From Escherichia coli (lineage in GTDB: Bacteria > Pseudomonadota > Gammaproteobacteria > Enterobacterales > Enterobacteriaceae): DNA of 64,000 nucleotides. Shown here one piece after another: positions 2,984 through 64,000 of this stretch. The number at the start of each line of letters is the position of its first letter. The stretch's first letter is position 1. A program made the position numbers and the translations under genes. The stretch lies in assembly GCF_024700885.2 (NCBI RefSeq), contig NZ_CP117016.1, one strand, 5' to 3'. The notes beneath the pieces are model-generated. The model ran no database searches. It was not told the origin of the DNA and saw only the letters and a program-made list of their open reading frames with translations.

Positions 2984-3442
2984 ATGTTAGATAAAATTGA
3001 CCGTAAGCTGCTGGCCTTACTACAGCAGGATTGCACCCTCTCTTTGCAGGCACTGGCTGAAGCCGTTAATCTGACAACTACCCCCTGCTGGAAGCGTCTG
3101 AAACGGCTGGAGGACGACGGTATTCTTATCGGCAAAGTCGCCCTGCTGGATCCGGAAAAAATAGGCCTCGGCCTGACTGCCTTTGTGCTGATAAAAACGC
3201 AACATCACAGCAGCGAATGGTATTGCCGCTTTGTCACGGTGGTTACCGAAATGCCAGAAGTGCTGGGGTTCTGGCGCATGGCCGGTGAATACGATTATCT
3301 GATGCGCGTCCAGGTTGCCGACATGAAACGCTACGACGAGTTTTATAAGCGTCTGGTAAACAGCGTGCCGGGGCTGTCGGACGTCACTTCCAGCTTCGCG
3401 ATGGAACAGATTAAATACACCACTTCTTTACCCATCGAATAA
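2984..3442 (+). CDS. ybaO: Lrp/AsnC-family transcriptional regulator YbaO (DecR)
   Basis: Within track ORF 2756..3442; start at internal ATG 2984 gives the 152-aa product [16 protein letters not shown]... with HTH and RAM domain features; the upstream track extension overlaps the cof 3' end and is rejected. Confidence 0.88.
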
Positions 3443-11048: not shown

Positions 11049-11162
11049 GGGGGCTCTGTTGGTTCTCCCGCAACGCTACTCTGTTTACCAGGTCAGGTCC
11101 GGAAGGAAGCAGCCAAGGCAGATGACGCGTGTGCCGGGATGTAGCTGGCAGGGCCCCCACCC
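11049..11162 (+). ncRNA. ffs: 4.5S RNA (SRP RNA) ffs
   Basis: GGGGGCTCTGTTGGTTCTCCCGCAACGCTACTCTGTTTACCAGGTCAGGTCCGGAAGGAAGCAGCCAAGGCAGATGACGCGTGTGCCGGGATGTAGCTGGCAGGGCCCCCACC matches the recalled E. coli 4.5S RNA, including the conserved SRP domain IV GGAAGGAAGCAGCC motif. Confidence 0.93.
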
Positions 11163-26692: not shown

Positions 26693-28624
26693 ATGAGTTA
26701 TCAGGTCTTAGCCCGAAAATGGCGCCCACAAACCTTTGCTGACGTCGTCGGCCAGGAACATGTGCTGACCGCACTGGCGAACGGCTTGTCGTTAGGGCGT
26801 ATTCATCATGCTTATCTTTTTTCCGGCACCCGTGGCGTCGGAAAAACCTCTATCGCCCGACTGCTGGCGAAGGGGCTAAACTGCGAAACCGGCATTACCG
26901 CGACGCCGTGCGGCGTGTGCGATAACTGTCGTGAAATCGAGCAGGGGCGCTTTGTCGATCTGATTGAAATCGACGCCGCCTCGCGCACCAAAGTTGAAGA
27001 CACTCGCGACCTGCTGGATAACGTCCAGTACGCTCCGGCGCGTGGTCGTTTCAAAGTTTATCTGATCGACGAAGTGCATATGCTGTCGCGCCACAGCTTT
27101 AACGCACTGTTAAAAACCCTTGAAGAGCCGCCGGAGCACGTTAAGTTTCTGCTGGCGACGACCGATCCGCAGAAATTGCCGGTGACGATTTTGTCGCGCT
27201 GTCTGCAATTCCATCTCAAGGCGCTGGATGTCGAGCAAATTCGCCATCAGCTTGAACACATCCTCAACGAAGAACATATCGCTCACGAGCCGCGGGCGCT
27301 GCAATTGCTGGCGCGCGCCGCTGAAGGCAGCCTGCGAGATGCCTTAAGTCTGACCGACCAGGCGATTGCCAGCGGTGACGGCCAGGTTTCAACTCAGGCG
27401 GTCAGTGCGATGCTGGGTACGCTTGACGACGATCAGGCGCTGTCGCTGGTTGAAGCGATGGTCGAGGCCAACGGCGAGCGCGTAATGGCGCTGATTAATG
27501 AAGCCGCTGCCCGTGGTATCGAGTGGGAAGCGTTGCTGGTGGAAATGCTCGGTCTGTTGCATCGTATTGCGATGGTACAACTTTCGCCTGCTGCACTTGG
27601 CAACGACATGGCCGCCATCGAGCTGCGGATGCGTGAACTGGCGCGCACCATACCGCCGACGGATATTCAGCTTTACTATCAGACGCTGTTGATTGGTCGC
27701 AAAGAATTACCGTATGCGCCAGACCGCCGTATGGGCGTTGAGATGACGCTGCTTCGTGCGCTGGCGTTCCATCCGCGTATGCCGCTGCCTGAGCCAGAAG
27801 TGCCACGCCAGTCCTTTGCGCCCGTCGCGCCAACGGCAGTAATGACGCCAACCCAGGTGCCGCCGCAACCGCAATCAGCGCCGCAGCAGGCACCGACTGT
27901 ACCGCTCCCGGAAACCACCAGCCAGGTGCTGGCGGCGCGCCAGCAGTTGCAGCGCGTGCAGGGAGCAACCAAAGCAAAAAAGAGTGAACCGGCAGCCGCT
28001 ACCCGCGCGCGGCCGGTGAATAACGCTGCGCTGGAAAGACTGGCTTCGGTCACCGATCGCGTTCAGGCGCGTCCGGTGCCATCGGCGCTGGAAAAAGCGC
28101 CAGCCAAAAAAGAAGCGTATCGCTGGAAGGCCACCACTCCAGTGATGCAGCAAAAAGAAGTGGTCGCCACGCCGAAGGCGCTAAAAAAAGCGCTGGAACA
28201 TGAAAAAACGCCGGAACTGGCGGCGAAGCTGGCGGCAGAAGCCATTGAGCGCGACCCGTGGGCGGCACAGGTGAGCCAACTTTCGCTACCAAAACTGGTC
28301 GAACAGGTGGCCTTAAATGCCTGGAAAGAGGAGAGCGACAACGCAGTATGTCTGCATTTGCGCTCCTCTCAGCGGCATTTGAACAACCGCGGCGCACAGC
28401 AAAAACTGGCTGAAGCGTTGAGCACGTTAAAAGGTTCAACGGTTGAACTGACTATCGTTGAAGATGATAATCCCGCGGTGCGTACGCCGCTGGAATGGCG
28501 TCAGGCGATATACGAAGAAAAACTTGCGCAGGCGCGCGAGTCCATTATTGCGGATAATAATATTCAGACCCTGCGTCGATTCTTCGATGCGGAGCTGGAT
28601 GAAGAAAGTATCCGCCCCATTTGA
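26693..28624 (+). CDS. dnaX: DNA polymerase III tau subunit (full length); the gamma subunit is made from the same start by -1 frameshifting
   Basis: 643-aa ORF; Walker A GTRGVGKTS, Zn-binding CGVCDNC. Confidence 0.96.
   Translation: MSYQVLARKWRPQTFADVVGQEHVLTALANGLSLGRIHHAYLFSGTRGVGKTSIARLLAKGLNCETGITATPCGVCDNCREIEQGRFVDLIEIDAASRTKVEDTRDLLDNVQYAPARGRFKVYLIDEVHMLSRHSFNALLKTLEEPPEHVKFLLATTDPQKLPVTILSRCLQFHLKALDVEQIRHQLEHILNEEHIAHEPRALQLLARAAEGSLRDALSLTDQAIASGDGQVSTQAVSAMLGTLDDDQALSLVEAMVEANGERVMALINEAAARGIEWEALLVEMLGLLHRIAMVQLSPAALGNDMAAIELRMRELARTIPPTDIQLYYQTLLIGRKELPYAPDRRMGVEMTLLRALAFHPRMPLPEPEVPRQSFAPVAPTAVMTPTQVPPQPQSAPQQAPTVPLPETTSQVLAARQQLQRVQGATKAKKSEPAAATRARPVNNAALERLASVTDRVQARPVPSALEKAPAKKEAYRWKATTPVMQQKEVVATPKALKKALEHEKTPELAAKLAAEAIERDPWAAQVSQLSLPKLVEQVALNAWKEESDNAVCLHLRSSQRHLNNRGAQQKLAEALSTLKGSTVELTIVEDDNPAVRTPLEWRQAIYEEKLAQARESIIADNNIQTLRRFFDAELDEESIRPI
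27976..28016 (+). other. dnaX: dnaX programmed -1 ribosomal frameshift site (slippery heptamer plus downstream stem-loop) yielding gamma
   Basis: A AAA AAG at 27976..27982 in the dnaX frame (codons GCA AAA AAG); the -1 frame reads GAG TGA (Glu, stop) directly after; GC-rich stem-loop CCGGCAGCCGC...GCGCGGCCGG at 27989..28016. Confidence 0.9.
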
Positions 28625-35940: not shown

Positions 35941-36046
35941 GTAGGCCAGATAAGGCGTTCACGCCGTATCTGGCATTTTGCTCTCAATGCCTGATGCGAC
36001 GCTGGCGCGTCTTATCATGCCTACATATCCGCGCCTATTATCCGGC
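35941..36046. repeat. REP/BIME cluster between gsk and ybaL
   Basis: GTAGGCCAGATAAGGCGTTCACGCCGTATCTGGC and GCCTGATGCGACGCTGGCGCGTCTTATCATGCCTAC are REP-type palindromes. Confidence 0.8.
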
Positions 36047-41697: not shown

Positions 41698-41781
41698 ACA
41701 CCGTCGCTTAAAGTGACGGCATAATAATAAAAATATGAAATTCCTCTTTGACGGGCCAATAGCGATATTGGCCATTTTTTT
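41698..41781 (+). ncRNA. chiX: Small regulatory RNA ChiX (MicM/SroB)
   Basis: ACACCGTCGCTTAAAGTGACGGCATAATAATAAAAATATGAAATTCCTCTTTGACGGGCCAATAGCGATATTGGCCATTTTTTT matches the recalled ChiX sequence; ends in an intrinsic terminator (GGCCAATAGCGATATTGGCC plus T7) that abuts the convergent ybaP stop. Confidence 0.88.
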
Positions 41782-42574: not shown

Positions 42575-43002
42575 ACGACCTCCCTTTGTGAAATATCATG
42601 CTAGCGCGCGGGGAGGGATGGCGCAAATGGAGTTATGAGGCTTGTTCAGTGGTAGCTTAAATATGATCAAAAAATTGTTTTTGCTTTGAAACGAAAGACT
42701 GCACCGGTGTTGGTGGCGTCAAAATCGCCGAGGCGTTCCCTGAAGGCCGGGGCAGCCCACATGGATGTGGGCTGAGGGCGCGTTTTACAGGGATGTTACC
42801 TCGCGCCCGACCCGGTAGCCGCAAGGGATAAGCTGAGGGTACCGCGCAGCGGCGATTTTGTTCGCCAGAGCCCGGGGGCGCAGGGGGCGGCGGCGATTGG
42901 CCGCCCCCTGCGCGCTCCCTGCGCCAGTCACTTTATATGGCATTACTCATAAAAGGAGCGCAACAAGAACTGGATCTCACAAACGCATTAAGTAAATACC
43001 AA

Positions 43003-45507
43003 TCATTCCTTCGGTTTAAACCGCAGCAACCGGTTGGCGTTACTCACTACGGTAATCGACGAGAGCGCCATTGCCGCTCCGGCGACCACCGGGTTAAGCA
43101 GCGTACCGGTGAACGGCCACAAAATACCGGCGGCGACCGGAATACCGATACTGTTGTAGATAAACGCGCCGAGCAGGTTCTGCTTCATATTGCGCAGCGT
43201 TGCGCGGGAAATCGCGAGCGCATCCGCAACACCCATCAGGCTATGGCGCATCAGGGTAATCGCCGCGGTTTCAATGGCAACATCACTGCCGCCACCCATC
43301 GCAATACCGACATCCGCCTGAGCCAGCGCTGGCGCGTCGTTAATGCCGTCGCCCACCATTGCCACCTGACGTCCTTCACTTTGCAGACGTTTGATCGCTT
43401 CGGCTTTACCGTCCGGCAGCACCCCAGCTATCACCTCATCAATCCCTGCTTCTTTGGCGATCGCATTGGCGGTGGTTGGGTTATCCCCGGTTAGCATCAC
43501 CAGACGATATCCCGCTTTATGCAGGCGTTGCAGCGCCGCCACGCTATCACTACGCAATGGATCGCGTACAGCCAGCAGGGCTACCGCTTTCCCGTCAACC
43601 GCCAGCAGCACAGGCGTTGCCCCTTGCGATGCCTGAGCTGAAATATCTGCCTCAATCGCTTTAGTATCAACTTGCTGGTCATTTAACAGCGCCTGATTGC
43701 CCAGCAATACCGCATGACCTTCAGCTTCACCGCTCACACCCAGCCCGCGCAATGTGCGGAAACCGTTGACCTGCGGTAGCTGCATATCACCTGCTTTATC
43801 GAGGATCGCCCGTGCCAGCGGGTGGCTGGAACCTTGCTCCAGCGCCGCCGCCAGACGCAATGCTTGCGCTTCATCAACATCAGCAAATGTTTTTACTGCG
43901 ACAACCTGCGGCTTCCCTTCGGTCAGCGTCCCGGTTTTATCGAACACCACGGTGTCGAGCGTACTGGCGCGTTGCAGCGCGTCGGCGTCCCGCACCAGCA
44001 CACCAAACTCAGCCGCCCGCCCGACGCCCGAAATAATCGACATCGGCGTCGCCAGTCCCAGCGCACACGGACAGGCGATAATCAGCACCGTGGTGGCAAT
44101 CACCAGGGTATAGACAATCTGCGGTGCCGGACCAAAGAAATACCAGATTGCCGCACTGATCAGCGCAATGACTACCACTACCGGCACAAACACGGCGGAG
44201 ATTTTATCCGCCAGTTGACCGATTTCTGGCTTGCTGCTCTGGGCCTGTCGCACCATGCGAATGATCCGTGACAGCGTAGTATGGCTGCCGACCGCACTGG
44301 CACGAAACAGCACACTGCCGTCCTGTACCACTGTCCCGGCATGGACGCTATCGCCTTCGCCTTTTTGCTGCGGGATAGGTTCGCCCGTCAGCATCGCTTC
44401 ATCCAGCCACGCTTCGCCTTGAGTAATCTCACCATCTACCGGCACACGGTCGCCGGTCGTCAGGCGCAGTAACATACCTGGCTGAACATCTGCCAGCGGC
44501 ACGTTTTTTTCACCTTCGTCAGTGACCAGGCGCGCCGTCGGTGGGGTTAAATCGAGTAATTTCTCCAGCGCCTTAGAAGAACGCTGACGCGCGCGCGCTT
44601 CCAGCATATGGCCGAGATTGATCAGACCGATAATCATCGCGCTGGCTTCGTAATAAAGATGTCGCGCTTCCATCGGGAACCACTGCGGCCACAGGTTGAC
44701 GCTCATCGAATAGAGCCACGCCACGCCCGTACCCAGCGCCACCAGCGTATCCATTGTCGCCGCGCCGTTCAGCAGGCTTTTCCATGCACTGCGGTAAAAA
44801 TGCCCGCCGGCGAAAACCATTACCGCCAGGGTTATCAGGCCGATAACCAACCACAGGCTGCGGTTGTCGGCGGTGACCATCATGTTATCGCCGATCATCC
44901 CCCAGACCATCACCGGGATACCCACCGCCAGTGCGACAATCGCCTGCCAGCGGAAGCGCTTCATCGTAGCGACGGCGGTTTCTTGCTGGCGCTCGCGGCG
45001 TTTAGCGTCATCTTCAATCGCTTCCGCGCCGTAGCCCGCTTTTTCCACCGCCTGCACTAAATCTTGTGGGGAGGCACTGCCCATCACCAGCGCAGTACGC
45101 TCCGCCAGGTTTACCCGTGCCTGAGTGACGCCCGGTACGCTTTGCAACGCATTTTGTACGCGGGTGACACAGCTGGCGCAGCTCATGCCGCTCAGCAGCA
45201 ACTGCTGGCTGTCATCGTCATCGGCGGTCGCTGCCGGAAGCGCCTCAGAAACCGCTGTCAGTGCTTCCGACGGGATTGATGACTCCGCCAGCGGTTTAGC
45301 CTTTGGGTGGCTTACAGATGCGTCATAACCCGCTTGTTTGATGGTTTCGATCAGCTGTTCTGCACTGGCAGTCCCGGTAACGTGCGCTTCAGTGACAGAC
45401 ACATCCGCCTGCTCAACATCCGGGCGCTGTTCGAGACTTTCTTTCACGCGTTTAACGCAGTGACCGCAGGACAGGCCGTCCAGGGTCAGGTCGATAGTTT
45501 GTGACAT
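43003..45507 (-). CDS. copA: Cu(I)-translocating P1B-type ATPase CopA
   Basis: 834-aa ORF; two N-terminal GxxCxxC metal-binding domains, CPC motif, DKTGTLT phosphorylation site. Confidence 0.97.
45301..45307 (-). other. copA: copA programmed -1 frameshift slippery site giving the ~70-aa CopA(Z) chaperone
   Basis: Minus-strand heptamer C CCA AAG spans codons 67-69 (His-Pro-Lys); the -1 frame reads CCC AAA GGC TAA, terminating after Gly70. Confidence 0.75.
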
Positions 45508-46704: not shown

Positions 46705-47997
46705 ATGATGAACACGGAAGGTAATAACGATAACAAACCCCTCGGTCTATGGAACGTCGTTTCCATCGGTATTGGGGCAATGGTGGGGGCGGGGATCTTC
46801 GCGCTGCTGGGGCAGGCTGCGTTGCTAATGGAAGCCTCGACCTGGGTCGCCTTTGCTTTTGGCGGTATTGTGGCGATGTTTTCCGGTTATGCCTATGCGC
46901 GCCTGGGGGCGAGCTATCCCAGCAATGGCGGTATTATCGACTTCTTTCGTCGCGGATTAGGCAACGGCGTCTTTTCGCTGGCACTCTCGTTATTGTACCT
47001 GTTGACGCTGGCGGTGAGCATCGCCATGGTCGCCCGTGCTTTTGGCGCTTATGCCGTGCAGTTTTTGCATGAAGGCAGCCAGGAGGAGCACCTTATATTG
47101 CTCTACGCGTTGGGGATCATTGCGGTGATGACGCTTTTCAACTCCTTAAGCAACCATGCGGTAGGGCGGCTGGAAGTGATCCTCGTCGGCATTAAAATGA
47201 TGATCCTGTTATTGCTGATTATTGCCGGTGTCTGGTCGCTGCAACCGGCGCATATTTCCGTCTCTGCGCCCCCCAGCTCCGGTGCGTTCTTCTCCTGTAT
47301 CGGGATAACCTTCCTTGCCTATGCGGGCTTTGGCATGATGGCGAACGCGGCGGATAAAGTGAAAGATCCGCAGGTCATTATGCCACGGGCGTTTCTGGTG
47401 GCGATTGGCGTTACCACGTTGCTTTATATCTCGCTGGCGCTGGTTTTGCTTAGCGATGTATCGGCATTAGAGTTAGAAAAATATGCCGATACCGCCGTAG
47501 CGCAGGCAGCTTCTCCGCTGCTCGGGCATGTGGGTTATGTGATCGTCGTCATCGGCGCTTTACTGGCGACGGCTTCAGCCATCAACGCGAACCTGTTCGC
47601 CGTGTTTAACATCATGGACAACATGGGCAGCGAACGCGAACTGCCAAAGCTAATGAATAAATCCCTGTGGCGGCAGAGTACCTGGGGCAACATCATTGTC
47701 GTGGTGCTGATTATGCTGATGACGGCGGCGCTGAATTTAGGCTCACTCGCCAGCGTTGCCAGCGCCACCTTTTTGATCTGCTATCTGGCGGTGTTTGTGG
47801 TGGCGATCCGCCTGCGTCATGATATTCACGCCTCGTTGCCGATTCTTATCGTTGGTACGTTGGTGATGTTGTTGGTGATCGTTGGCTTTATCTACAGCCT
47901 GTGGTCCCAGGGCAGCCGTGCGTTGATATGGATTATTGGTGCAATCTTACTCAGCCTTATTGTGGCAATGGTCATGAAGCGCAATAAAACCGTATAA
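46705..47997 (+). CDS. ybaT: APC-family amino acid transporter YbaT
   Basis: 430-aa 12-TM ORF starting 3 bp after glsA (operon). Confidence 0.92.
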   Translation: MMNTEGNNDNKPLGLWNVVSIGIGAMVGAGIFALLGQAALLMEASTWVAFAFGGIVAMFSGYAYARLGASYPSNGGIIDFFRRGLGNGVFSLALSLLYLLTLAVSIAMVARAFGAYAVQFLHEGSQEEHLILLYALGIIAVMTLFNSLSNHAVGRLEVILVGIKMMILLLLIIAGVWSLQPAHISVSAPPSSGAFFSCIGITFLAYAGFGMMANAADKVKDPQVIMPRAFLVAIGVTTLLYISLALVLLSDVSALELEKYADTAVAQAASPLLGHVGYVIVVIGALLATASAINANLFAVFNIMDNMGSERELPKLMNKSLWRQSTWGNIIVVVLIMLMTAALNLGSLASVASATFLICYLAVFVVAIRLRHDIHASLPILIVGTLVMLLVIVGFIYSLWSQGSRALIWIIGAILLSLIVAMVMKRNKTV

Positions 47998-48008
47998 CAC
48001 CTCTCTGC

Positions 48009-48041
48009 GCGCAGTACAGCCTGTACTGCGCCTTTGTCTTT
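48009..48041 (+). terminator. Rho-independent terminator of glsA-ybaT; last recognisable core-backbone feature before the island
   Basis: Hairpin GCGCAGTACA-GCC-TGTACTGCGC followed by CTTTGTCTTT. Confidence 0.7.
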
Positions 48042-48334
48042 AATTCAAATTACCTTTCTTATTCCTTTAATAAATAAGTCACAAAAAAATGATATATACG
48101 CGATAAATCTGTGATGCTAATCACTTATTACCGTGGATTATTCTTAATGTGTATGATGGTAATCTAAAAGTCGTAGTGTATTCTAAATAAATAACGTATA
48201 AGCTTTTTAGCTGCATTTCTTTGCCCATATCAAAGATCGACAAAAGAGATGCACAAGTTATTACCCTTCTTAATAAAATGAGACTGGTTATAAAAACCAG
48301 TTAAAATAATGACCTGGAAGGAAGTGACTTATCT

Positions 48335-49690
48335 ATGGCGCGATTCCAGTTTAAAAGCCGTAAAAATAATGGGTTTATTTTTTTAATAAGTTTTATGGTG
48401 ATGGGAGAGGCTACAATTGCTGCACCGCTGCCACAATGGGCGAACGCCCCAGCGGTAACGCCAGTTGCCCGATTATCTTTACAGGAAAGTATATTACGCG
48501 CCTTTGCGCGAAATCCCGACGTCACTCAACAGGCGGCGCAGATAGGTATTGGCGAAGCGCAAATTGATGAAGCCAAAAGTGCCTGGTATCCGCACGTTGG
48601 ATTAACCGGCAATGCGGGACCGTCCCGACAAACGGACTCCAGTGGCAGGCTTGATAACAACGTTTCGTATGGCATAACCCTGACACAGCTGGTGTATGAC
48701 TTTGGTAAAACTAACAACGATATCAAACTGCAAACTGCCGCCCGTGACAGCTACCGCTTTAAATTGATGGCAACATTAACCGATGTTGCAGAGAAAACGG
48801 CGACTGCCTATATGGAAGTCAGTCGTTATCAGGCTTTGTGCGATGCGGCTCAACGCAATATTCACTCGCTGGAAAACGTCTACAACATGGCGGCATTGCG
48901 CGCTAATGCTGGCCTGAACTCATCGTCGGATGAATTACAAGCCCAGACGCGCATTGCCGGAATGCGCTCAACGCTGGAGCAATATCAGGCGCAGATGGCA
49001 AGCGCCAAAGCGCAACTGGCGGTGCTCACTGGCGTACAGCCGGAGGCGATAGCCGCGCCACCTGCTGAATTAGCCGAGCAGCCGGTATCGCTGAAAAATA
49101 TTGATTACCAGTCCATCCCGCTGGTGCTGGCGGCAGAAAACTTACGCCAGTCAGCACAGTACGGCGTGGAAAAAACGAAAGCGCAATACTGGCCAACGCT
49201 CAGTATTCAGGGGGGCAAAACGCGCTACCAGACCAGTGACCGCTCGTATTGGGACGATCAGTTACAACTGAACGTTAACGCGCCGCTGTATCAGGGCGGC
49301 GCAGTTTCAGCCCAGGTGCAACAGGCTGAAGGGCAACAAAAAATCTCTGCCTCGCAGGTCGAACAGGCAAAACTGGATGTGCTGCAACGAGCGTCTGTGG
49401 CATATGCCAACTGGACAGGCGCACGGGGTCGCGAAGAAGCCGGTTTAGCACAATCCGAAAGTGCGCACAAAACGCGAGATGTGTACCAAAATGAATATAA
49501 ATTGGGCAAACGCAGTCTGAATGATCTATTAACCGTCGAGCAAGATGTCTTTCAGGCGCAATCGGCTGAAATAAATGCCAATTATGATGGCTGGGTCGCC
49601 GCCGTAAATTATGCCGCTGCGGTGAATAACCTTATTCCATTAGCGGGAATTAAACAGGGCTTATACAACGACTTACCCGACTTGAAATAA
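48335..49690 (+). CDS. TolC-family outer membrane factor of a type I secretion system
   Basis: 451-aa ORF with signal peptide (KSRKNNGFIFLISFMVMGEATIA/APLP) and Gln/Ala-rich coiled-coil repeats typical of TolC-family channels; not part of the K-12 backbone at this position. Confidence 0.8.
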   Translation: MARFQFKSRKNNGFIFLISFMVMGEATIAAPLPQWANAPAVTPVARLSLQESILRAFARNPDVTQQAAQIGIGEAQIDEAKSAWYPHVGLTGNAGPSRQTDSSGRLDNNVSYGITLTQLVYDFGKTNNDIKLQTAARDSYRFKLMATLTDVAEKTATAYMEVSRYQALCDAAQRNIHSLENVYNMAALRANAGLNSSSDELQAQTRIAGMRSTLEQYQAQMASAKAQLAVLTGVQPEAIAAPPAELAEQPVSLKNIDYQSIPLVLAAENLRQSAQYGVEKTKAQYWPTLSIQGGKTRYQTSDRSYWDDQLQLNVNAPLYQGGAVSAQVQQAEGQQKISASQVEQAKLDVLQRASVAYANWTGARGREEAGLAQSESAHKTRDVYQNEYKLGKRSLNDLLTVEQDVFQAQSAEINANYDGWVAAVNYAAAVNNLIPLAGIKQGLYNDLPDLK

Positions 49691-49798
49691 TCCTGCCATT
49701 ATTAATATCAGGTATGCCTCGTTGTTAAGTGATTACCTTTGTCTTATTTAGATAAATGGACTCGCTAAGGATATGCGCCATTTATCAGGAATGCCATT

Positions 49799-52700
49799 AT
49801 GAGCCTGATTATTGATGTTATTTCGCGTAAAACATCCGTCAAACAAACGCTGATTAATCCTGGCGACGTCACGGTTGTTATTTATGAGCCTTCCGTGGTG
49901 CAGGTTCATGCTCAGGCCTCTGCCGTTTCGCGTTACGTCCGTGAAGGAAATGACCTGCTGATCTATATGCAGGACGGCACGGTGATCCGTTGCAACGGTT
50001 ATTTCCTGCAAGCGGCGAATACCGCTGAACAATCGGAACTGGTGTTTGCCGATGGGCAACAGCTAACCCATGTCACCTTTGCCGATACTGCTGCGGGTGG
50101 TTTAGCCCCCGTAGAACTGACTGCCCAGACCACTGCGATTGAAAGCATTGCGCCATTTCTTGATACCGTTGCTCAGACCAGCGCCTTCCCGTGGGGTTGG
50201 CTGGCGGGGGCGGCGGTAGGTGGTGGTGCGCTTGGTGCACTGCTGGCAAGCGGTGGTGATGGCGACTCGAAAACGGAAGTGATTAATAACCCTACGCCAC
50301 CCGCTGAGCCTGGCAACGCCACACCATCATTTTTAGTTACCGATAATCAGGGCGATCAGCGCGGCATTCTCGCCACCAATGACATCACCGATGACACCAC
50401 GCCAACCTTTAGCGGCAGCGGGCAGGCGGGGGCGACTATTCAGATTAAAGACAGTAACGGCAATACTATTGCCAGTACTCAGGTAGACAACAACGGTCAC
50501 TGGAGTGTCTCGTTACCCACGCAAAGTGCAGGTGAACATACCTGGTCAGTGGTGCAAATTGTCGGCAGTACCATCACTGACGCCGGTTCGATAACGTTAA
50601 CCATCGACAATAGTCAGGCCAGCGTGCAGGTTGCCACCACCGCAGGCGATAACATTATTAACGCCAGCGAACAGGCCGCCGGGTTTACGCTTTCTGGTAC
50701 CAGTAGCCATCTGGCGCAGGGAACAGAACTCACCGTTACGCTAAACGGCAAAACCTACACCACCAGCGTAGGCGCTAACGGTGCCTGGAGCGTGCAGGTA
50801 CCGACCGCCGATGCGCAGGCGTTAGGCGAAGGGAATCAGGCAGTGCTGGTCAGCGGGAAAGACGCCACAGGCAATACGGTCACCGGCGCGCAGCTTTTAA
50901 CGGTCGATACCCAACCGCCAACGCTTGCCATCAACACTATCGCTCAGGACAACATCGTCAGTGCTGCGGAACATAACGCCGCGCTGGTACTGAGCGGCAC
51001 TTCGAATGCAGAAGCGGGGCAAACCGTAACCCTGACCGTCAACGGGAAAAGCCATTCAGTAACCGTCGGTAGCGATGGAACCTGGCAAGTGACGCTGCCT
51101 GCCACGGAGGTACAGGCACTGGCGGAGGGGAACTACGCTGTCAATGCCAGTGTCAGCGATCGGGCAGGAAACACCACCAGCAACAGCGCGAATTTCACGG
51201 TAGACACCTCAGCACCCGTGGTCAGCGTTAACACCGTGGCGGGCGACGATATTCTTAATAATGCTGAGCAGGCCGTCGCGCAGATCATCTCCGGACAAGT
51301 CAGCGGTGCTTCTCCTGGCGATACGGTAACGGTGAAATTGGGCACTCATGTCCTGACGGGCATTGTGCTGGCAGATGGCAGCTGGAATGTGGCGCTGGAC
51401 CCAGCGGTAACCCGCACGCTGGATCGCGGAGCCAATACGATTTTCGTCACCGTGACAGATACTGCAGGAAATACCGGCGCGGCGTCTCGAGCAATCACGC
51501 TGGTCGGTGTCTCTCCGTTAATCACCATTAACACCGTCTCCGGCGATGACATTATCAGTGGCGCAGAAAAAGGTGCGCCACTGACCCTTACCGGTAGCAC
51601 TCAACAGGCCGAGACAGGACAAACCGTCACAGTAACCCTGGCTGGACAGAGTTTTACTACTACCGTGCAGGCTGATGGCTCCTGGAGTCTGACGGTACCT
51701 GCCGCCGCGATGGGAAATCTGCCTGACGGCGCGGTGGCGATTACCGCTTCTGTGACGGATCTCAGCGGCAATACCGGCAACACCTCTCGCACCATTACCG
51801 TCGACAGCCAGGCCCCGGCCTTAAGCATCGATCCACTGACCGCCGATAACATCATCAACGCCACCGAAAGCGGGCAGGATCTGCAAATCACCGGCACCAC
51901 CGACGCTCAGCCAGGGCAGACGGTGACCGTTACGTTGAATGGGCAGACCTATCAGGGCGTCGTGCAGTCCGACGGCACCTGGAGCGTGACCGTTCCCGCC
52001 GCCAACGTTGGCGCACTGGCTGACGGCAACGCTACGGTCACCGCCAGCGTGAACGATGTTGCCGGTAATCCGAGCAGCGTCTCACGCGTGGCGCTGGTCG
52101 ATGCCACGCCGCCGGTGGTAACCATTAATCCGGTGGCGACCGATAACGTCATCAACACGCCGGAACACACCCAGGCGCAAATCATCAGCGGCACGGTTAC
52201 TGGCGCTCAGGCGGGCGATATCGTCACCGTGACGCTGAATAATGTGGATTACACCACGGTGGTGGATGGTTCCGGCAACTGGAGTCTGGGTGTTCCGGCT
52301 TCCGTTGTCAGCGGACTGGTGGATGGCAGTTATCCGATCAACGTGTCAGTGACTGACCGCGCCGGAAACACGGGCAGCCAGTCACTGACTGTCACGGTCA
52401 ATACCGCCGCGCCAGTAATTGGTATTAACACCATTGCTGGCGATGATGTGATAAACGCCAGCGAAAAAGGGGCTGATGTCCAGATTACCGGTACCAGCGA
52501 TCAGCCAGCCAATACCGCCATCACCGTGACGCTGAACGGGCAAAATTACACCACCACGACCGACGCCTCCGGCAACTGGAGCGTCACCGTTCCGGCATCG
52601 GCGGTAACCGCACTGGGCCAGGCCAACTACACGGTAACGGCGGCGGTGACGAGTAATATCGGCAACAGCGCCACCGCCAGCCATAACGTGCTGGTTGACA

Positions 52701-55700
52701 GCGCGCTGCCCGGCGTGACCATTAACCCGGTGGCAACCGACGATATTATTAACGCCGCCGAAGCGGGCGTCGCGCAAACCATCAGCGGGCAGGTGACTGG
52801 AGCCGCCGTTGGCGACGCGGTAACCGTTACGCTGGGTGGCAATACCTACACCACCACCGTACAGCCGGGATTAAGCTGGAGCGTGAGCATTCCGGCGGAC
52901 GCTATTCAGGCGCTGGGTAATGGCGATTTAACGGTGAGCGCCTCGGTCACCAATCAAAACGGCAACACCGGCAGCGGCACGCGGGATATCACCATCGACG
53001 CCAATCTGCCCGGTCTGCGGGTCGATACGGTGGCAGGCGATGATGTGGTCAATATCATCGAGCACGGGCAGGCGCTGGTGGTCAGCGGCAGCAGCTCGGG
53101 GCTGGCTGAAGGCACGCCGCTTACCGTTACGATTAACAATGTGGAATACACCACTGCGGTGCAGGCCGATGGTAGCTGGAGCGTGGGCGTCACGGCGGCG
53201 CAGGTTAGCGCCTGGCCTGCGGGAACAGTAACGGTTACCGTGTCCGGGGAAAGTAGCGCCGAAAATCCGGTGAGCATTACGCATCCGGTTATGGTCGATC
53301 TCACTCCGGCGGCGATCACCATCAACACCATCGCCACGGATGATGTGATTAACGCCACAGAAAAAGGCGCTGATTTAACCCTTTCCGGCACCACCACTAA
53401 CGTAGAATCCGGTCAAACCGTCACCGTCACCTTTGGCGGGAAAAATTACACTGCCAGCGTGGCGAGCGATGGTAGCTGGGCTGCCACCGTTCCCGCCGCC
53501 GATCTGGCAGCATTACCAGAGGGCAGCGCCTCCGCGCAGGCCAGCGTCAGCAATATTAACGGCAATAGCGCCTCGGCGGTGCATAACTACAGCGTCGACA
53601 GCAGTGTCCCGACCATCATTATCAATACCGTTGCCAGCGACAATATCGTCAACGCCAGCGAAGCCGATGCGGGTGTGACGGTGAGCGGCAGCACCACTGC
53701 CGAGGCAGGGCAGATTGTTACGATAACGCTCAATAGCCCGACCGTGCAGACGTATCAGGCAACGGTACAGGCCGACGGTAGCTGGAGTATTAATATTCCG
53801 GCGGCAGATCTTGAGGCATTGACCGATGGCAGCCACACCCTGACCGCCACGGTCAATGACAAAGCAGGCAACCCGGCGAGCACCACGCATAATCTGGCGG
53901 TGGATCTCACCGTTCCGGTACTCACCATCAACACCATTGCGGGCGACGATATTATTAACGCCGCCGAACACGGGCAGGCGCTGGTGATTTCCGGTTCCAG
54001 CACTGGCGGAGAAGCGGGGGATGTCGTCACCGTCACGCTAAACAGTAAAACCTACACCACGACGCTGGATGCCTCCGGCAACTGGAGCGTCGGCGTTCCG
54101 GCGGCGGATGTCACGGCGCTGGGCAGCGGCCCGCAAACTGTCACCGCCAGCATTACCGACGCGGCAGGCAATAGCGATGATGCCAGCCGCACGGTTACAG
54201 TGAATCTGACCGCGCCGACCATTGGCATTAACACCATCGCCACCGATGACGTGATTAACGCCATCGAAAAAGGCGCGGATCTGCAAATTTCCGGCACCAG
54301 TAATCAGCCAGCTGGCACCACAATTACGCTGACGCTGAACGGGCAAAATTACACTGCCACGACGGACGCCGCAGGCAACTGGAGCACCACGGTGCCAGCC
54401 TCCGCCGTCAGTGCGCTGGGCGAAGCCAGTTATACGGTGACGGCGAATGTCACCGACAGCGCGGGTAACAGTAATTCCGCCAGCCATAACGTGCAGGTGA
54501 ATACCGCACTGCCTGGCGTCACCCTTAATCCGGTGGCGAGCGACGACATTATTAACGCCGCCGAATCGGGCGTGGCGCAGACCATCAGCGGGCAGGTGAC
54601 GGGCGCGGCGGCGGGCGATACGGTTACCGTAACGCTTGGCGGGAAAACCTACACCACTACCGTGCAGGGCAATTTAAGCTGGAGCGTGGGCGTTCCGGCG
54701 GCGGATATTCAGGCCATCGGCAATGGCGACCTGACAGTTAATGCCTCGGTGACCAACGGCGTTGGTAATACCGGCAGCGGTTCGCGAGATATTACTATCG
54801 ACGCTAATTTGCCTGGCCTGCGCGTCGATACCGTGGCGGGCGATGATGTGGTCAACAGCATCGAGCACGGTCAGGCACTGGTGATAACCGGTAGCAGCAG
54901 CGGGCTGGCGGCGGGCGCGGCGCTGACGGTGGTGATCAATAACGTCACCTACGGCGCGACGGTATTAGCCGATGGTACATGGAGCCTTGGCGTTCCAGCG
55001 GCAGATGTGGGCAACTGGCCTGCGGGTACGGTGAATATCACGGTTTCAGGTGCCACTAGCGCAGGAAACCCGGTCACTATCACCCATCCGGTCACCGTCG
55101 ATCTGGCGGCGGTGGCGATCTCCATTAACACCGTTTCCGGCGACGATGTGATTAACGCCGCCGAAAAAGGGGCAGATTTAACCCTTTCCGGCAGCACTTC
55201 CGGCGTGGAAGCGGGACAAACCGTCACCGTCACCTTTGGCGGTAAAACCTACACCGCCACCGTAGCGGGCGATGGTAGCTGGACAACCACCGTACCCGCC
55301 GCCGATCTCAGCGCGTTACGCGACGGCGACGCCACGGTACAGGCCAGCGTCAGCAATATTAACGGCAACACGGCTTCGGCGACCCACGCCTACAGCGTCG
55401 ATGCCACGGCACCGACGCTTGCCATTAACACCATCGCCACTGACGATATTCTGAACGCCGCCGAGGCGGGCAATCCGCTAACCATCAGCGGCAGTAGCAC
55501 CGCCGAAGCGGGGCAGACGGTAACTGTCACGCTTAATGGCGTGACTTACACCGGCACCGTCCTGGCGGACGGGAGCTGGAGCGTCAGCGTGCCGACGGCG
55601 GATCTCAGCAATCTGACCGCCAGCCAGTACACGGTCAGCGCCTCGGTAAGCGATAAAGCGGGTAACCCGGCAACCGCCACTCATGGGCTGGCGGTGGATC

Positions 55701-58700
55701 TCACCGTTCCCGTATTAACCATCAACACCGTCTCCGGCGATGACATTATTAACGCCGCCGAACACGGGCAGGCGCTGGTAATCTCCGGTTCCAGCGCTGG
55801 CGGCGAAGCGGGCGATGTCATCACCGTTACGTTAAACAGTAAAACCTATACCACCACGCTGGACGCTTCCGGCAACTGGAGCGTCGGCGTTCCGCTGTCA
55901 GATGTCACTGCGCTGGGCAGCGGCCCGCAAACCATCACAGCTACCATTACCGACGCGGCAGGCAACAGCGATGATGCCAGCCGCACGGTCACCGTGAATC
56001 TCACCGCGCCAACCATTGGTATCAACACTATCGCCAGCGATGACGTGATTAACGCCACGGAAAAAGGCGCGGATCTGCAAATTACCGGCACCAGTAATCA
56101 ACCCGCAGGCACCACAATAACGGTGACGCTGAACGGGCAAAATTACACCGCGACGACCGATTCCTCCGGCAACTGGAGCGCCACGGTGCCTGCCTCGGCA
56201 GTTAGCGCGCTGGGTGAGGCCAATTACACGGTAACCGCCGCCGCTACTGACGCCGATGGCAACAGCGGTTCCGCCAGCCATAACGTACAGGTTAATACCG
56301 CGCTGCCTGGCGTCACCATTAACGTGGTGGCAACGGACGATATTATTAACGCTGCCGAAGCAGGGACAGATCAAACTATCAGCGGGCAGGTGACGGGGGC
56401 TACGGCAGGCGATACGGTGACCGTCACGCTCGGCGGGGCGACTTACACTGCCACGGTGCAGGCGAATTTAAGCTGGAGCGTCGATGTTCCGGCCTCCGCG
56501 CTACAGGCGTTGGGCAACGGTGAGCTGACCATTTCGGCTTCGGTAACGAACAGCGTAGGCAATACCGGTAACGGCACGCGTGAAATCACCATCGACGCGA
56601 ATCTGCCCGGTCTGCGGATTGACACCGTGGCGGGCGATGACGTGGTCAATATTATCGAGCACGGACAGGCGCTGGTGATTACCGGCAGCAGCTCCGATCT
56701 GGCAGCGGGCAGCAACGTCACGCTGACCATTAACGGGCAAACCTATGTTGCGGCGGTACTGGCGGATGGCTCATGGAGCGTCGGCGTTCCGGCGGCAGAT
56801 GTCAGCGCCTGGCCTGCGGGGACGGTCACAATTACGGCGAGCGGCAACACCACCGCCGGAAATCCGGTCAGCGTTACGCATCCGGTGACTGTCGATCTCA
56901 CTGCGGTGGCGGTCAGCATCAACGCCATTACTGCCGATGACGTGATTAACGCTGCCGAAAAAGGCGCGGCGTTAACGCTCTCTGGCAGCACTTCTGGTGT
57001 GGAGGCCGGGCAAACGGTCACCGTCACCTTTGGCGGCAAAACTTACAGCGCCACGGTGGCTGCGAATGGTTCCTGGAGCACCTCGGTTCCGGCGGCAGAT
57101 ATGGCGGCCCTGCGTGATGGCGATGCCAGCGCACAGGCCAGAGTCAGCAATGTTAACGGCAACAGCGCCACCACTACTCACGCTTACAGCGTCGATGCCA
57201 GCGCGCCAACGGTGGCCATTAACACTATTGCAGGCGACGATATTCTTAACGCCGCCGAAGCGGGTGCTGCGCTGACTATCACTGGCAGCAGCACGGCGGA
57301 AGCGGGGCAGACGGTGACCGTCACCCTCAATGGCGAAAACTATACTGGCACGGTTCAAACGGACGGTAGCTGGAGCGTCAGCGTACCGCCAGCCGACTTA
57401 AGCGCCCTGACCGCCAGCAACTACACCGTTAGTGCGGCGGTGAGCGACAAAGCCGGAAACCCGGCCTCGGTTAATCACAACCTGACGGTGGATACGTCTG
57501 TTCCGGTTGTCACCATCAACACGGTGGCGGGCGATGATGTGATCAACGCGACGGAACACGCCCAGGCGCAGATTATCAGCGGCTCCGCCACGGGTGCGGC
57601 AACCGGCAGCACCGTGACGGTGACTATCGGCAGCACCACCTTCACCACCGTGCTGGACGCCAGCGGTAACTGGAGCGTCGGCGTTCCGGCAAGCGTCGTC
57701 TCGGCGCTGGCGAACGGCACGGTGACCATTAACGCCAGCGTCACCGATGCCGCCGGAAACAGCGGCAGCGCCACGCATCAGGTGACGGTCAATACTGGCC
57801 TGCCGTCAATTACCTTTAACGCCATCAGCGGCGATAACGTCCTGAACGCCGATGAAAAAGGCCAGCCGTTGACCATTAGCGGTAGCAGTACGGGGCTGGC
57901 GACGGGCGCGCAGGTCACCGTCACGCTCAACGGTCATAACTACAGCGCCACCACCGACGCGGCGGGCAACTGGACCTTAACCGTGCCGGTGAGCGATCTG
58001 GCGGCTCTGGGTCAGGCCAACTATACCGTCAGCGCCAGTGCCACCAGTGCGGCGGGTAACACCGCCAGCAGCCAGGCGAATTTACTGGTCGATAGCGGCC
58101 TGCCGGGCGTTACCATCAACACCGTGGCGGGCGATGATATTATCAACGCCGCCGAAGCCGGGGCCGATCAAACCATCAGCGGGGTGGTGACTCGCGCCGC
58201 CGCTGGCGATACGGTCACCGTGACGCTGGGCGGCAACACTTACACAGCGCAGGTTCAGCCCGATTTAAGTTGGAGCGTCACCGTTCCGGCAGACGATTTA
58301 CAGGCGTTGGGCAATGGCGATTTGACCATTAACGCCTCGGTTACCAACGCGAATGGCAACACTGGCAGCGGCTCGCGGGATATCACCATTGATGCCAACC
58401 TGCCGGGTCTGCGCGTGGATACCGTGGCGGGCGATGATATCGTCAACAGTATCGAGCACGGGCAGGCGCTGGTGATCACCGGCGGCAGTAGCGGCCTGAA
58501 TGCAGGTGCTGTGCTGACGGTTACCATCAACAGTGTGGCGTATTCCACCACGGTACAGGCGGACGGGAGCTGGAGCGTTGGCATTCCGGCGGCAAACGTC
58601 AGCGCCTGGCCTGCGGGGCCGTTAACCGTTGAAGTTACAGGACAGAGCAGCGCCGGAAACCCAGTCAGCGTCAGCCATCCGTTCACCGTCGATTTAACGG

Positions 58701-61700
58701 CGGTGGCAATCAGCATCAACACCGTTGCCAGCGATGACGTAATTAACGCCGCCGAAAAAGGCACTGGTCTGACCCTTTCCGGCAGCACCAGCGGGATTGA
58801 AAGCGGGCAAACCGTTACCGTCACTTTTGGCGGTAAAACCTACACTGCAAGCGTCGCCGCCAACGGTAGCTGGAGTGTGAACGTTCCAGCGGCAGATCTG
58901 GCAACTCTGCCAGACGGCGCGGCGAACGTGCAGGCTAGTGTCAGCAGCGCGAGCGGTAACAGTGCCTCGGCGACCCATGCGTATAGCGTTGACGCCAGCG
59001 CACCGACGCTCACCATTAACACCATTGCCAGCGACGATATTCTTAACGCCACGGAGGCGGGAAGCCCGCTCACCATCAGCGGCACCAGCACCGCCGAAAC
59101 CGGGCAGACGGTCACCGTGACCCTTAACGGCGCAACCTACACCGGCAATGTGCAGGCGGACGGTAGCTGGAGCGTCAGCGTTCCCACTTCAGCCCTGGGC
59201 GTGCTAAGTGCAAGCAATTACACCGTCAGCGCCACGGTCAACGACAAAGCGGGCAACCCCGGCAGCGCCAGCCATAATCTGGCGGTAGACACCACCGCGC
59301 CGGTTCTCACCATTAACACCGTGGCGGGCGATGACATCATCAACGACGCCGAACACGGGCAGGCGCTGGTGATTTCTGGCACCAGCACGGGCGGGGAAGC
59401 GGGCGATGTGGTGAGCGTTGTGCTCAACGGCAAAACCTACACCACCACCCTGGATGCCTCCGGCAACTGGAGCGTTGGCGTTCCGGCGGCGGATGTTACG
59501 GCACTGGGTAGCGGCGCACAGACCATCACCGCCAGCGTCAGCGATCGGGCGGGTAACAGCGATGACGCCAGCCGCACCGTGACCGTCAGCCTCAGCGCGC
59601 CAGTGATTAGCATCAACACCATCGCGGGCGATGATGTGATCAACGCGACGGAAAAAGGATCTGATCTGGCGCTTTCCGGCACCAGCGATCAGCCTGCGGG
59701 TACGGCGATCACCGTCACCCTGAACGGACAAAACTACAGCGCCACTACCGACGCCTCCGGCAACTGGAGCGTCACCGTGCCCGCCTCGGCGGTCAGTGCG
59801 CTGGGCGAAGCCACCTACAGCGTCACGGCGAGCGTTACCAATGCTCAGGGTAACAGCAGCACCGCCAGCCATAACGTGCAGGTCAATACCGCGCTGCCGG
59901 GCGTCACCATTAATCCGGTGGCGACGGACGATATTATCAACGCTTCAGAGGCGGGCAGCGCGCAAACTATCAGCGGCCAGGTAACCGGTGCGGCGGCGGG
60001 TAGCATCGTCACCGTTGAACTGGGCGGTAAAACTTACACCGCCACCGTCCAGCCAGATTTAAGCTGGAATGTGAGCGTACCAGCCGCCGACTGGCAGGCG
60101 TTAGGTAATGGTGAGTTAACGGTTAATGCCTCGGTAACCAACGCCGTTGGCAACACCGGTAGCGGCACGCGCGATATCACCATCGACGCCAGTCTGCCTG
60201 GCCTGCGGGTGGATACCGTTGCAGGCGATGATGTGGTCAATATCATCGAACATGCTCAGGCGCAGGTGATTACTGGCACCAGCTCTGGCTTTGCGGCGGG
60301 CACGGCGCTGACGGTGGTGATAAATAACCAAACTTATGCCGCCACGGTGCTGGCGAATGGTACCTGGAGCGTCGGCGTACCGGCGGCGGATGTCAGTAAC
60401 TGGCCTGCGGGAACGCTGAACATTACCGTTAGCGGCGCGAACAGTGCCGGAACGCAAACCAGCATTACCCATCCGCTGACAGTTGATCTCAGCACTGTCG
60501 CCGTCAGCATAAACAGCATCACCAGCGATGATGTGATTAACGCCGCCGAAAAAGGCGCGGCATTAACGCTCTCCGGCAGCACGTCCGGCGTCGAAGCGGG
60601 GCAAGCCGTTACCATTACTTTTGGCGGTAAAACCTACACCACCACGGTGGCGGCAAACGGTAGCTGGAGCACCACCGTTCCGGCGGCGGATATGGCGGCC
60701 CTGCGTGACGGCGATGCCAGCGCCCAGGTGCGGGTGACTAACGTCAACGGCAACAGCGCCACGGCAACGCATGAATACAGCGTCGATAGCGCCGCGCCAA
60801 CGGTGACCATCAATACCATTGCCAGTGATAACATCATCAACGCCAGCGAAGCGGCGGCGGGCGTGACGGTATCCGGCACCAGCACGGCGGAGGCAGGGCA
60901 GACGCTGACCGTCACGCTTAATGGCACTAACTACCAGACCACGGTGCAGGCAGACGGCAGCTGGAGTTTAACGCTGCCCGCCAGCGACTTAACCGCACTT
61001 GCCAATAACGGCTACACCCTGACCGCCACGGTCAGCGATTTGGCGGGTAACCCTGGCAGCGCCAGCAAAGGTGTGACCGTCGATACCACCGCGCCCGTCA
61101 TCAGCTTTAACACCGTGGCGGGCGACGATGTGATTAACAACGTTGAACACACTCAGGCGCAGATTATCAGCGGCACCGCCTCGGGCGCGGTGGCGGGCGA
61201 CCGCCTGGTGGTGACCATCGCCGGGCAGCAGTATGTCACCAGCACCGATGCCAGCGGCAACTGGAGCGTTGGCGTGCCTGCCAGCGTGATTTCCGGCCTT
61301 GCGGACGGCACAGTGACTATCAGCGCCACTGTCACCGATAGCGCAGGCAACAGCAGCACGCAGACGCACAACGTGCAGGTGAACACGGCGGCAGTGTCGC
61401 TCTCGGTCAGCACCATCAGCGGCGATAACCTTATTAACGCCGCCGAAGCAGGCAGTGCGCTGACCCTGAGCGGCACCGGAACGAACTTTGCCGCAGGTAC
61501 AGTAGTGACCGTGTTGCTTAACGGCAAAGGCTACAGCGCTACCATTCAGAGCAACGGGAGCTGGAGCGTGAACGTGCCGGCGGCAGACGTTGCGGCGCTT
61601 GCCGATGGCACCAGCTACACGGTCAGCGCTTCCGCCCAGGACAGCGCCGGAAACAGCGCCACGGCTTCGCGCAGTGTGGCGGTGGATCTCACCGCGCCGA

Positions 61701-64000: not shown

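Follow-up and report, generated by a model that had tools for sequence, protein, structure and literature searches.

The window analyzed here, a stretch of 64,000 nucleotides from Escherichia coli (contig NZ_CP117016.1 of assembly GCF_024700885.2), contains downstream of ybaT a gene for a TolC-family outer membrane factor (OMF) and most of a giant adhesin gene, siiEA (Table 1). This region is the 5′ five-sixths of the known chromosomal SiiEA locus of E. coli, or O-island 28, a four-gene unit. The window itself covers ybaT, the OMF gene and the 5′ part of the adhesin gene; the genes beyond it were read from the annotation of E. coli MLI114, isolated from human stool in Mali. Positions 27000–64000 show no mismatch to MLI114 in 37,001 bp, positions 47000–52000 are 100% identical, and positions 1–25000 align at the expected MLI114 coordinates. 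Several further genomes are equally identical to parts of the window. Below, L001, L002 and L003 denote the numbering of the loci of MLI114, K-12 and O157 Sakai, and L001 21026 corresponds to position 48025 of the window.

The RefSeq annotation of MLI114 shows the order ybaT, TolC-family OMF, siiEA, type I secretion system (T1SS) permease/ATPase, HlyD-family adaptor, and cueR. Only four genes are placed between ybaT and cueR, and all four are intact there. The order OMF, adhesin, ATP-binding cassette (ABC) exporter and adaptor between ybaT and cueR is that of the SiiEA locus. A preliminary description, made from the letters of the window, had identified a T1SS locus with the OMF first and a BapA-type giant adhesin second, and this agrees with the annotation and the family scores. 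The AT-rich junction after ybaT and the TolC-family gene followed by an open reading frame (ORF) running to the window end were also correctly described (coordinates in Table 1). It gave cueR as the next gene after ybaT in K-12; in MG1655, cueR is directly next, 124 bp away. The ABC transporter, membrane fusion protein and C-terminal secretion signal that it placed beyond the window are present in MLI114, where the downstream extension it proposed located the adhesin 3′ end, both transporter genes and the cueR junction. The giant ORF is free of stops and frameshifts, transporter genes lie next to it, and the protein belongs to a secreted family, so that none of the observations that would have spoken against that description was made. 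The "RTX-family exoprotein" island it mentioned for pathogenic E. coli is found at the same position with the same genes in O157 Sakai. Thus, its identification of the locus stands, and its statements on the direction of the event and on the lack of functional characterization do not, as described below.

Table 1. Features of the window around the SiiEA locus.
Feature	Position	Strand	Description	Basis
ybaT	46705–47997		Last gene before the locus	
ybaT terminator hairpin	48009–48031	+	10-bp stem, T-rich tail	Terminator scan
RstA box TAATTCAAATTACC	48041–48054	+	−294 to −281 relative to the start codon of the OMF gene	Exact match
Regulatory AT-rich spacer preceding the OMF gene	48042–48334	+	293 bp, 29.4% GC	Composition
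OMF gene (tolC28 counterpart)	48335–49690	+	451 aa	ORF list, translation, TIGR01844, RefSeq
siiEA, "BapA-related adhesin SiiEA"	49799–64000	+	First 4,734 of 5,727 codons	Open frame, annotation of the identical genome
BapA prefix-like beta-sandwich domain (aa 5–132)	49811–50194	+	Pfam BapA_N, E = 2e-18	Pfam, NF033677
Hydrophobic Gly/Ala-rich segment PWGWLAGAAVGGGALGALLA (aa 131–150)	50189–50248	+	Near-invariant	Homologue alignment
Extender core	52388–61368	+	About five diverged super-repeats of ~1.8 kb	Self-BLAST, protein autocorrelation
Junction of the missing 3.59 kb	~56100–56200	+	Relative to the 20,778-nt allele of SW070910	Two collinear BLAST diagonals, windowed identity

The spacer upstream of the OMF gene is far poorer in GC than the first 48 kb of the window (52%). 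Weak sigma-70-like matches are found in it at 48250–48307. The corresponding spacer was published as the promoter/regulatory region of tolC28 in enterohemorrhagic E. coli (EHEC) (PMC12758282). In EHEC, the RstA box TAATTCAAATTACC spans −294 to −280 relative to the OMF gene, and binding was reported by electrophoretic mobility shift assay and chromatin immunoprecipitation (PMC12758282). The box has one exact match in the window, with 0 expected in shuffled sequences, and its sequence and position are unchanged from the published EHEC box, as is characteristic of the SiiEA locus. The OMF protein scores 416 bits, above the cut-off of 225, against the NCBIfam model TIGR01844, "TolC family outer membrane protein". 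Its gene is separated from the adhesin gene by 108 bp.

The siiEA frame is open from 49769 to base 64000, and the RefSeq start in MLI114 is the same ATG at 49799. The complete gene in MLI114 is 17,184 nt long and encodes 5,727 aa; it ends at L001 39983, equivalent to position 66982 of the window. The protein is rich in Thr, Ala, Gly, Val and Ser, and its single cysteine, Cys65, is invariant in the N-terminal alignment. The GC content of the gene is 61%, against 52% in the backbone, because of the Thr/Ala/Gly/Val-rich composition. Residues 1–230 match the dedicated NCBIfam model NF047714 (adhesin_SiiEA) with 504.6 bits (cut-off 425), and the N-terminus matches NF033677 (BapA_N) with 65 bits (cut-off 35). 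The BapA_N domain is followed by tandem immunoglobulin (Ig)-like (Big_13) repeats, which is the architecture of the BapA family. An AlphaFold2 model of the N-terminus, based on 11 sequences, has a mean pLDDT (predicted local distance difference test) of 61.8; residues 1–123 form an all-beta fold with block-mean pLDDT mostly of 68–92, and residues 124–200 are disordered. A sequence search of the Protein Data Bank (PDB) with the N-terminal module returned nothing meaningful. Homologues from Enterobacter, Pluralibacter, Pseudocitrobacter, Apirhabdus and a thrips symbiont conserve the segment PWGWLAGAAVGGGALGALLA, and W134, A136, G142, G143, G146, A147, L148 and L149 are invariant across homologues from six genera. 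This segment is a candidate retention or plug element.

About 90% of SiiEA is a tandem Ig-like extender. Many Big_13 domains were detected with Pfam, and 27 plus 18 stretches of calcium-stabilized repeats (Ca_tandemer) were found, 45 stretches in total. The autocorrelation of the protein sequence has peaks at 100, 299 and 598 aa. Each super-repeat is ~599 aa long and includes six Ig-like domains, and the super-repeats are 72–77% identical to each other in DNA by self-BLAST. Because of this low identity, Tandem Repeats Finder reported a single DNA array (62719–63478). It also makes collapse of the repeats during assembly unlikely. A 600-aa portion of the extender gave a match to the structure of the Ca2+-rigidified RII region of MpIBP, the Marinomonas ice-binding adhesin (4P99, E = 2.7e-56), as well as the RTX-adhesin extenders 5IRB and 6XI3.

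Near the C-terminus, which lies beyond the window, Pfam detects three or four FG-GAP_3 repeats, together with a single RTX HemolysinCabind match (E = 2e-4). The last ~100 aa match the type I secretion target domain TIGR03661 with 34.5 bits (cut-off 17.6) in MLI114. Thus, a C-terminal T1SS signal is present, and it belongs to the VCA0849 class. A model of the C-terminal 706 aa, built with 28 diverse homologues, has a mean pLDDT of 86.2 and a predicted template modelling score of 0.90. The best structural matches of this model are the propeller of CRTAC1 (E = 1.5e-13) and integrin-alpha propellers, and it also matches the beta-rolls of serralysin, PrtC and CyaA, which are T1SS substrates. A PDB sequence search with one piece of the FG-GAP region had no match, whereas the fold search did. 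Five calcium motifs of the DxDxDG type are found within the 706 aa. From this model, we predict an FG-GAP Ca2+ propeller as the head of SiiEA, with a short beta-roll and then the secretion signal after it. The sections consulted of the 2025 study (PMC12758282) describe only Ig-like and RTX domains, and a predicted head resembling CRTAC1 and integrin alpha would add to that picture.

The ABC exporter scores 835 bits against TIGR03375 (LssB type, cut-off 693) and belongs to the LssB/LapB subfamily. Its residues 12–82 show only a weak match to Pfam Peptidase_C39 (E = 0.029), the type of domain that HlyB and LapB carry at the N-terminus. The adaptor, of the HlyD family, scores 328 bits against TIGR01843 (cut-off 209). 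The ABC exporter, adaptor and TolC-like OMF are thus encoded together and all exceed curated cut-offs, which identifies a T1SS. Judging from the protein families, unfolded SiiEA would be threaded C-terminus first through the channel made of the ABC exporter, adaptor and OMF. Outside the cell, it would fold upon Ca2+ binding into a long rigid rod of ~45 Ig-like domains. It may stay attached through its N-terminal domain together with the hydrophobic segment PWGWLAGAAVGGGALGALLA, with the propeller head presented for ligand binding. Expression would be activated by RstA through the unchanged box, as in EHEC.

Among characterized systems, BapA/BapBCD of Salmonella resembles the locus in its BapA_N domain, its many consecutive Ig-like repeats, and an OMF, ABC exporter and adaptor that are encoded alongside and serve the adhesin; this likeness is based on family models and the NCBI name "BapA-related". 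In Salmonella, bapA comes first in the gene order, whereas the OMF gene comes first in the SiiEA locus. SiiEA is also larger, has the predicted FG-GAP propeller head, and is under RstA and Ca2+ regulation (PMC12758282). SiiE encoded in Salmonella pathogenicity island 4 is likewise a giant, T1SS-secreted, Ig-repeat and Ca2+-dependent epithelial adhesin, and is the source of the name siiEA. The E. coli locus, however, has no siiA/siiB-like (MotAB-like) genes, the N-terminus of SiiEA is of the BapA type, and no SiiE-specific family is found among the NCBIfam matches of SiiEA. Despite its name, SiiEA is not an orthologue of SiiE.

LapA/LapEBC of Pseudomonas fluorescens, MpIBP and FrhA are similar in the LssB/LapB-type ABC exporter, the VCA0849-class signal and the Ca2+-stabilized extender. 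The exporter subfamily and signal class would suit a LapA-like mode of hold and release, in which a LapG-type protease controlled by cyclic di-GMP cleaves the N-terminal retention module at a di-alanine site. The sequence TAAG at residues 97–100 of SiiEA resembles the consensus of the LapG cleavage site. Homologues from five other genera, among them Enterobacter, Pluralibacter and Pseudocitrobacter, lack this TAAG but retain the surrounding domain, and the motif was rejected as a LapG site for this lack of conservation. No lapG- or lapD-like genes adjoin the locus in the MLI114 annotation. The N-terminal domain is of the BapA prefix type, and both this domain family and the ligand-binding head differ from those of LapA-type adhesins. 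A LapA-like mode has only a small chance of being correct, and LapG-type release of SiiEA is unlikely.

The locus is already known from a gene name, a dedicated NCBI model, descriptions in genome papers and a functional study in 2025. The genome paper of enteroaggregative E. coli (EAEC) 042 in 2010 described a locus syntenic with that of O157:H7 and composed of an RTX-like substrate, a TolC-like outer membrane protein, a membrane fusion protein, an ABC transporter and cueR; the RTX-like substrate is interrupted in both EAEC 042 and O157:H7 (PMC2808357). The locus is Ec042-0526-0531 in EAEC 042. The name siiEA comes from the annotation of UMN026 as "adhesin for cattle intestine colonization" (PMC3256949). 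In EHEC O157:H7, O-island 28 includes Z0608 (tolC28), Z0609 (rtxA28), Z0615 (rtxB28), Z0634 (hlyB28) and Z0635 (hlyD28). Its position between ybaT and cueR, gene order, RstA box and NCBI protein name are all the same as those of the MLI114 locus, and the OMF, ABC and adaptor parts are 95.6–97.4% identical in nucleotide sequence. The difference is in the adhesin, which is split by a TAG codon in Sakai and treated as two proteins in PMC12758282, and is one ORF here. In O157:H7, deletion of the island or of any of the five annotated genes lowers adherence to Caco-2 cells, pedestal formation and colonization of the mouse colon (PMC12758282). RstA activates the locus, Ca2+ raises its expression through RstA, and O145:H28 behaves alike (PMC12758282). 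The preliminary description knew of no functional characterization; the locus was in fact tested in EHEC in 2025 and described in EAEC 042 in 2010. PMC12758282 reports the island in 0 of 10 EAEC and 0 of 55 extraintestinal pathogenic E. coli genomes, yet EAEC 042 (PMC2808357) and the human blood isolate MINF_7C carry the locus.

Several points weigh against the interpretation of this region as a T1SS adhesin locus. The published phenotypes are those of O157:H7 and O145:H28 strains only, and these strains carry an in-frame stop in the adhesin gene. For the large genes, only truncated constructs with two domains were used in complementation, and the sections consulted report adherence and colonization rather than detection of an exported protein (PMC12758282). 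The N-terminal model had no Foldseek match in PDB at E ≤ 0.001. RTX nonapeptide-like motifs are scarce, with only three or four in SiiEA.

Older annotations as "RTX toxin" or "exoprotein" and the names rtxA28 and rtxB28 imply an RTX cytotoxin. The single HemolysinCabind match described above and a weak similarity to the RTX block of CyaA (E = 4e-4) are in line with this. The few nonapeptide-like motifs do not form a long GGxGxDxUx block, however, and the bulk of the protein is the Ig-like extender. No hlyC-like acyltransferase gene is present in the locus, and no pore-forming or enzymatic domain was found in the NCBIfam and Pfam searches. The published phenotype is adherence, not toxicity (PMC12758282). 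We consider the toxin interpretation hardly credible; a cytotoxin role of SiiEA is very unlikely.

The locus is present in 958–959 of 5,426 complete E. coli genomes (~17.7%), always as one chromosomal copy; 959 genomes fully cover the ABC-adaptor-cueR segment. The ybaT-cueR spacer of K-12 aligns to the MLI114 locus in two pieces, one up to L001 21026 and the other from L001 43223. The second piece corresponds to the final ~100 bp of the adaptor gene, at 94% identity and with a frameshift in K-12. In this BLAST alignment, the left end of the deletion lies at ~48025 in the window, within the ybaT terminator hairpin. The 3′ arm of the terminator is removed by the deletion, and no terminator was detected on the + strand after ybaT in K-12. 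With the ABC-adaptor-cueR segment as a query, 24 of the 24 island-negative records listed, a spread sample, start at query position 3237–3240, the same scar. K-12 thus carries a ~22-kb deletion of the ancestral locus, which occurred in one event and left the same scar in all island-negative genomes sampled. The adaptor remnant means that the K-12 "backbone" is a deletion scar rather than an empty insertion site, and the direction of the event is settled within E. coli. The preliminary description, which had the island inserted after ybaT, was in error on this point, since K-12 retains a degraded adaptor end and the deletion cuts the ybaT hairpin.

Insertion of a horizontally acquired island at a K-12-like empty site after ybaT, also suggested in the discussion of PMC12758282, would fit the patchy distribution (~18% of genomes), the AT-rich upstream spacer (29% GC) and the high GC content of the adhesin gene. 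The homologous cassette of Enterobacter hormaechei also sits elsewhere in the chromosome. This scenario is at odds with the adaptor remnant between ybaT and cueR in K-12, the loss of the terminator arm, and the common end point in all sampled island-negative genomes. Moreover, the stop codon of the adaptor gene overlaps the start codon of cueR as ATGA (L001 43318–43321), and the ribosome-binding site of cueR is inside the adaptor gene. There is no integrase, insertion sequence element, tRNA, or flanking or direct repeat at the locus in the MLI114 annotation, and the high GC content is explained by the amino acid composition. Insertion at this site is improbable. An older acquisition by the ancestor of E. 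coli is possible, because the Enterobacter hormaechei cassette lies in a different chromosomal context. Our overall interpretation is that the region is the SiiEA/O-island 28 T1SS adhesin locus, ancestral at the ybaT-cueR position, and that K-12 and ~82% of sequenced E. coli lost it via one 22-kb deletion; we assign it a probability of about 0.9. The absence of the locus from K-12 as a single shared deletion changes how the presence or absence of an "O-island" is read in comparative genomics.

The overlap with the adaptor gene also bears on the expression of cueR. No promoter-like site was found on the + strand upstream of cueR in MLI114 or in K-12 (L002 5897–5994), and cueR may be co-transcribed with the upstream genes in both the island and the K-12 arrangements. 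A tentative proposal, which we regard as rather doubtful, is that cueR in island strains is translationally coupled to the adhesin-export operon as its final gene, and that in K-12-type strains it is expressed by read-through from glsA-ybaT. If so, cueR dosage would track the RstA/Ca2+ control of the adhesin system, and one ancient deletion would have rewired the transcription of a core copper-responsive regulator across most of the species.

After cueR, a second variable segment (L001 43729–45001) encodes two small hypothetical proteins along with a YadA-like trimeric autotransporter adhesin. It is also found in five other loci, including that of O157 Sakai, and is absent in K-12, where cueR abuts ybbJ. 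With siiEA before cueR and the YadA-like segment after it, two adhesin loci therefore flank cueR in such strains.

The adhesin gene varies among island-bearing genomes. The allele in the window is intact and encodes 5,727 aa, and the common allele is 20,778 nt long and encodes 6,925 aa. The window allele is shorter by 3,594 nt, or 1,198 aa, which corresponds to two super-repeats and ~12 Ig-like domains. Intact adhesin genes of 20,775–20,778 nt are found in SW070910, MINF_7C, Tig207, 118UI, EC476 and KGu016. B20105 has an intact 6,925-aa adhesin and a frameshifted OMF gene (L011 101–1455). A single in-frame TAG (L003 10738–10740), between AAGNSDN and THTVTV, interrupts the adhesin gene of O157 Sakai and divides it into ECs_0541 and ECs_0542. 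The halves are ORFs of 1,461 aa and 5,291 aa in the same frame and are the "rtxA28" and "rtxB28" of PMC12758282. The upstream 1,461-aa product would be without the C-terminal secretion signal. The "two RTX proteins" of EHEC thus come from a single gene that a nonsense codon has divided, and the intact 5,727-aa and 6,925-aa alleles are better material for secretion and binding studies. In O145 RM9872 and KV7, the adhesin is annotated with an internal stop. A deletion in GDSC2227PM joins the first ~154 adhesin codons to the middle of the ABC gene (L016 4465–6559). In Enterobacter hormaechei, an OEP-family gene is followed by the adhesin in a different neighborhood (L009 8542–21149), and the adhesin is again interrupted, giving a BapA_N fragment of 382 aa and an ORF of 5,632 aa.

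These interruptions raise the alternative that the locus is a decaying relic and that a working adhesin is no longer made in the window strain. The in-frame stops in O157 Sakai, O145 RM9872 and KV7, the interrupted gene in EAEC 042, the OMF frameshift in B20105, the fusion in GDSC2227PM and the complete loss from most E. coli are consistent with decay. In the strain studied here, however, all four genes are intact, the 17,184-nt ORF has no stop, and the RstA box is unchanged. The adhesin gene is intact in 7 of the 11 island-bearing genomes whose annotation was examined, and even the interrupted EHEC alleles give phenotypes on deletion (PMC12758282). A relic is unlikely.

Elsewhere in the window, a ~725-bp segment of K-12 that includes ybaQ, between ybaP and copA, is replaced by an unrelated GC-rich stretch of ~358 bp (42647–43004). 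This stretch contains palindromic units resembling repetitive extragenic palindromes, and MLI114 annotates no gene there. Rfam matches at 11057–11153, 27957–28021, 35944–36021 and 41698–41781 are ordinary backbone elements: the signal recognition particle RNA, the dnaX frameshift element, naRNA4 and sroB.
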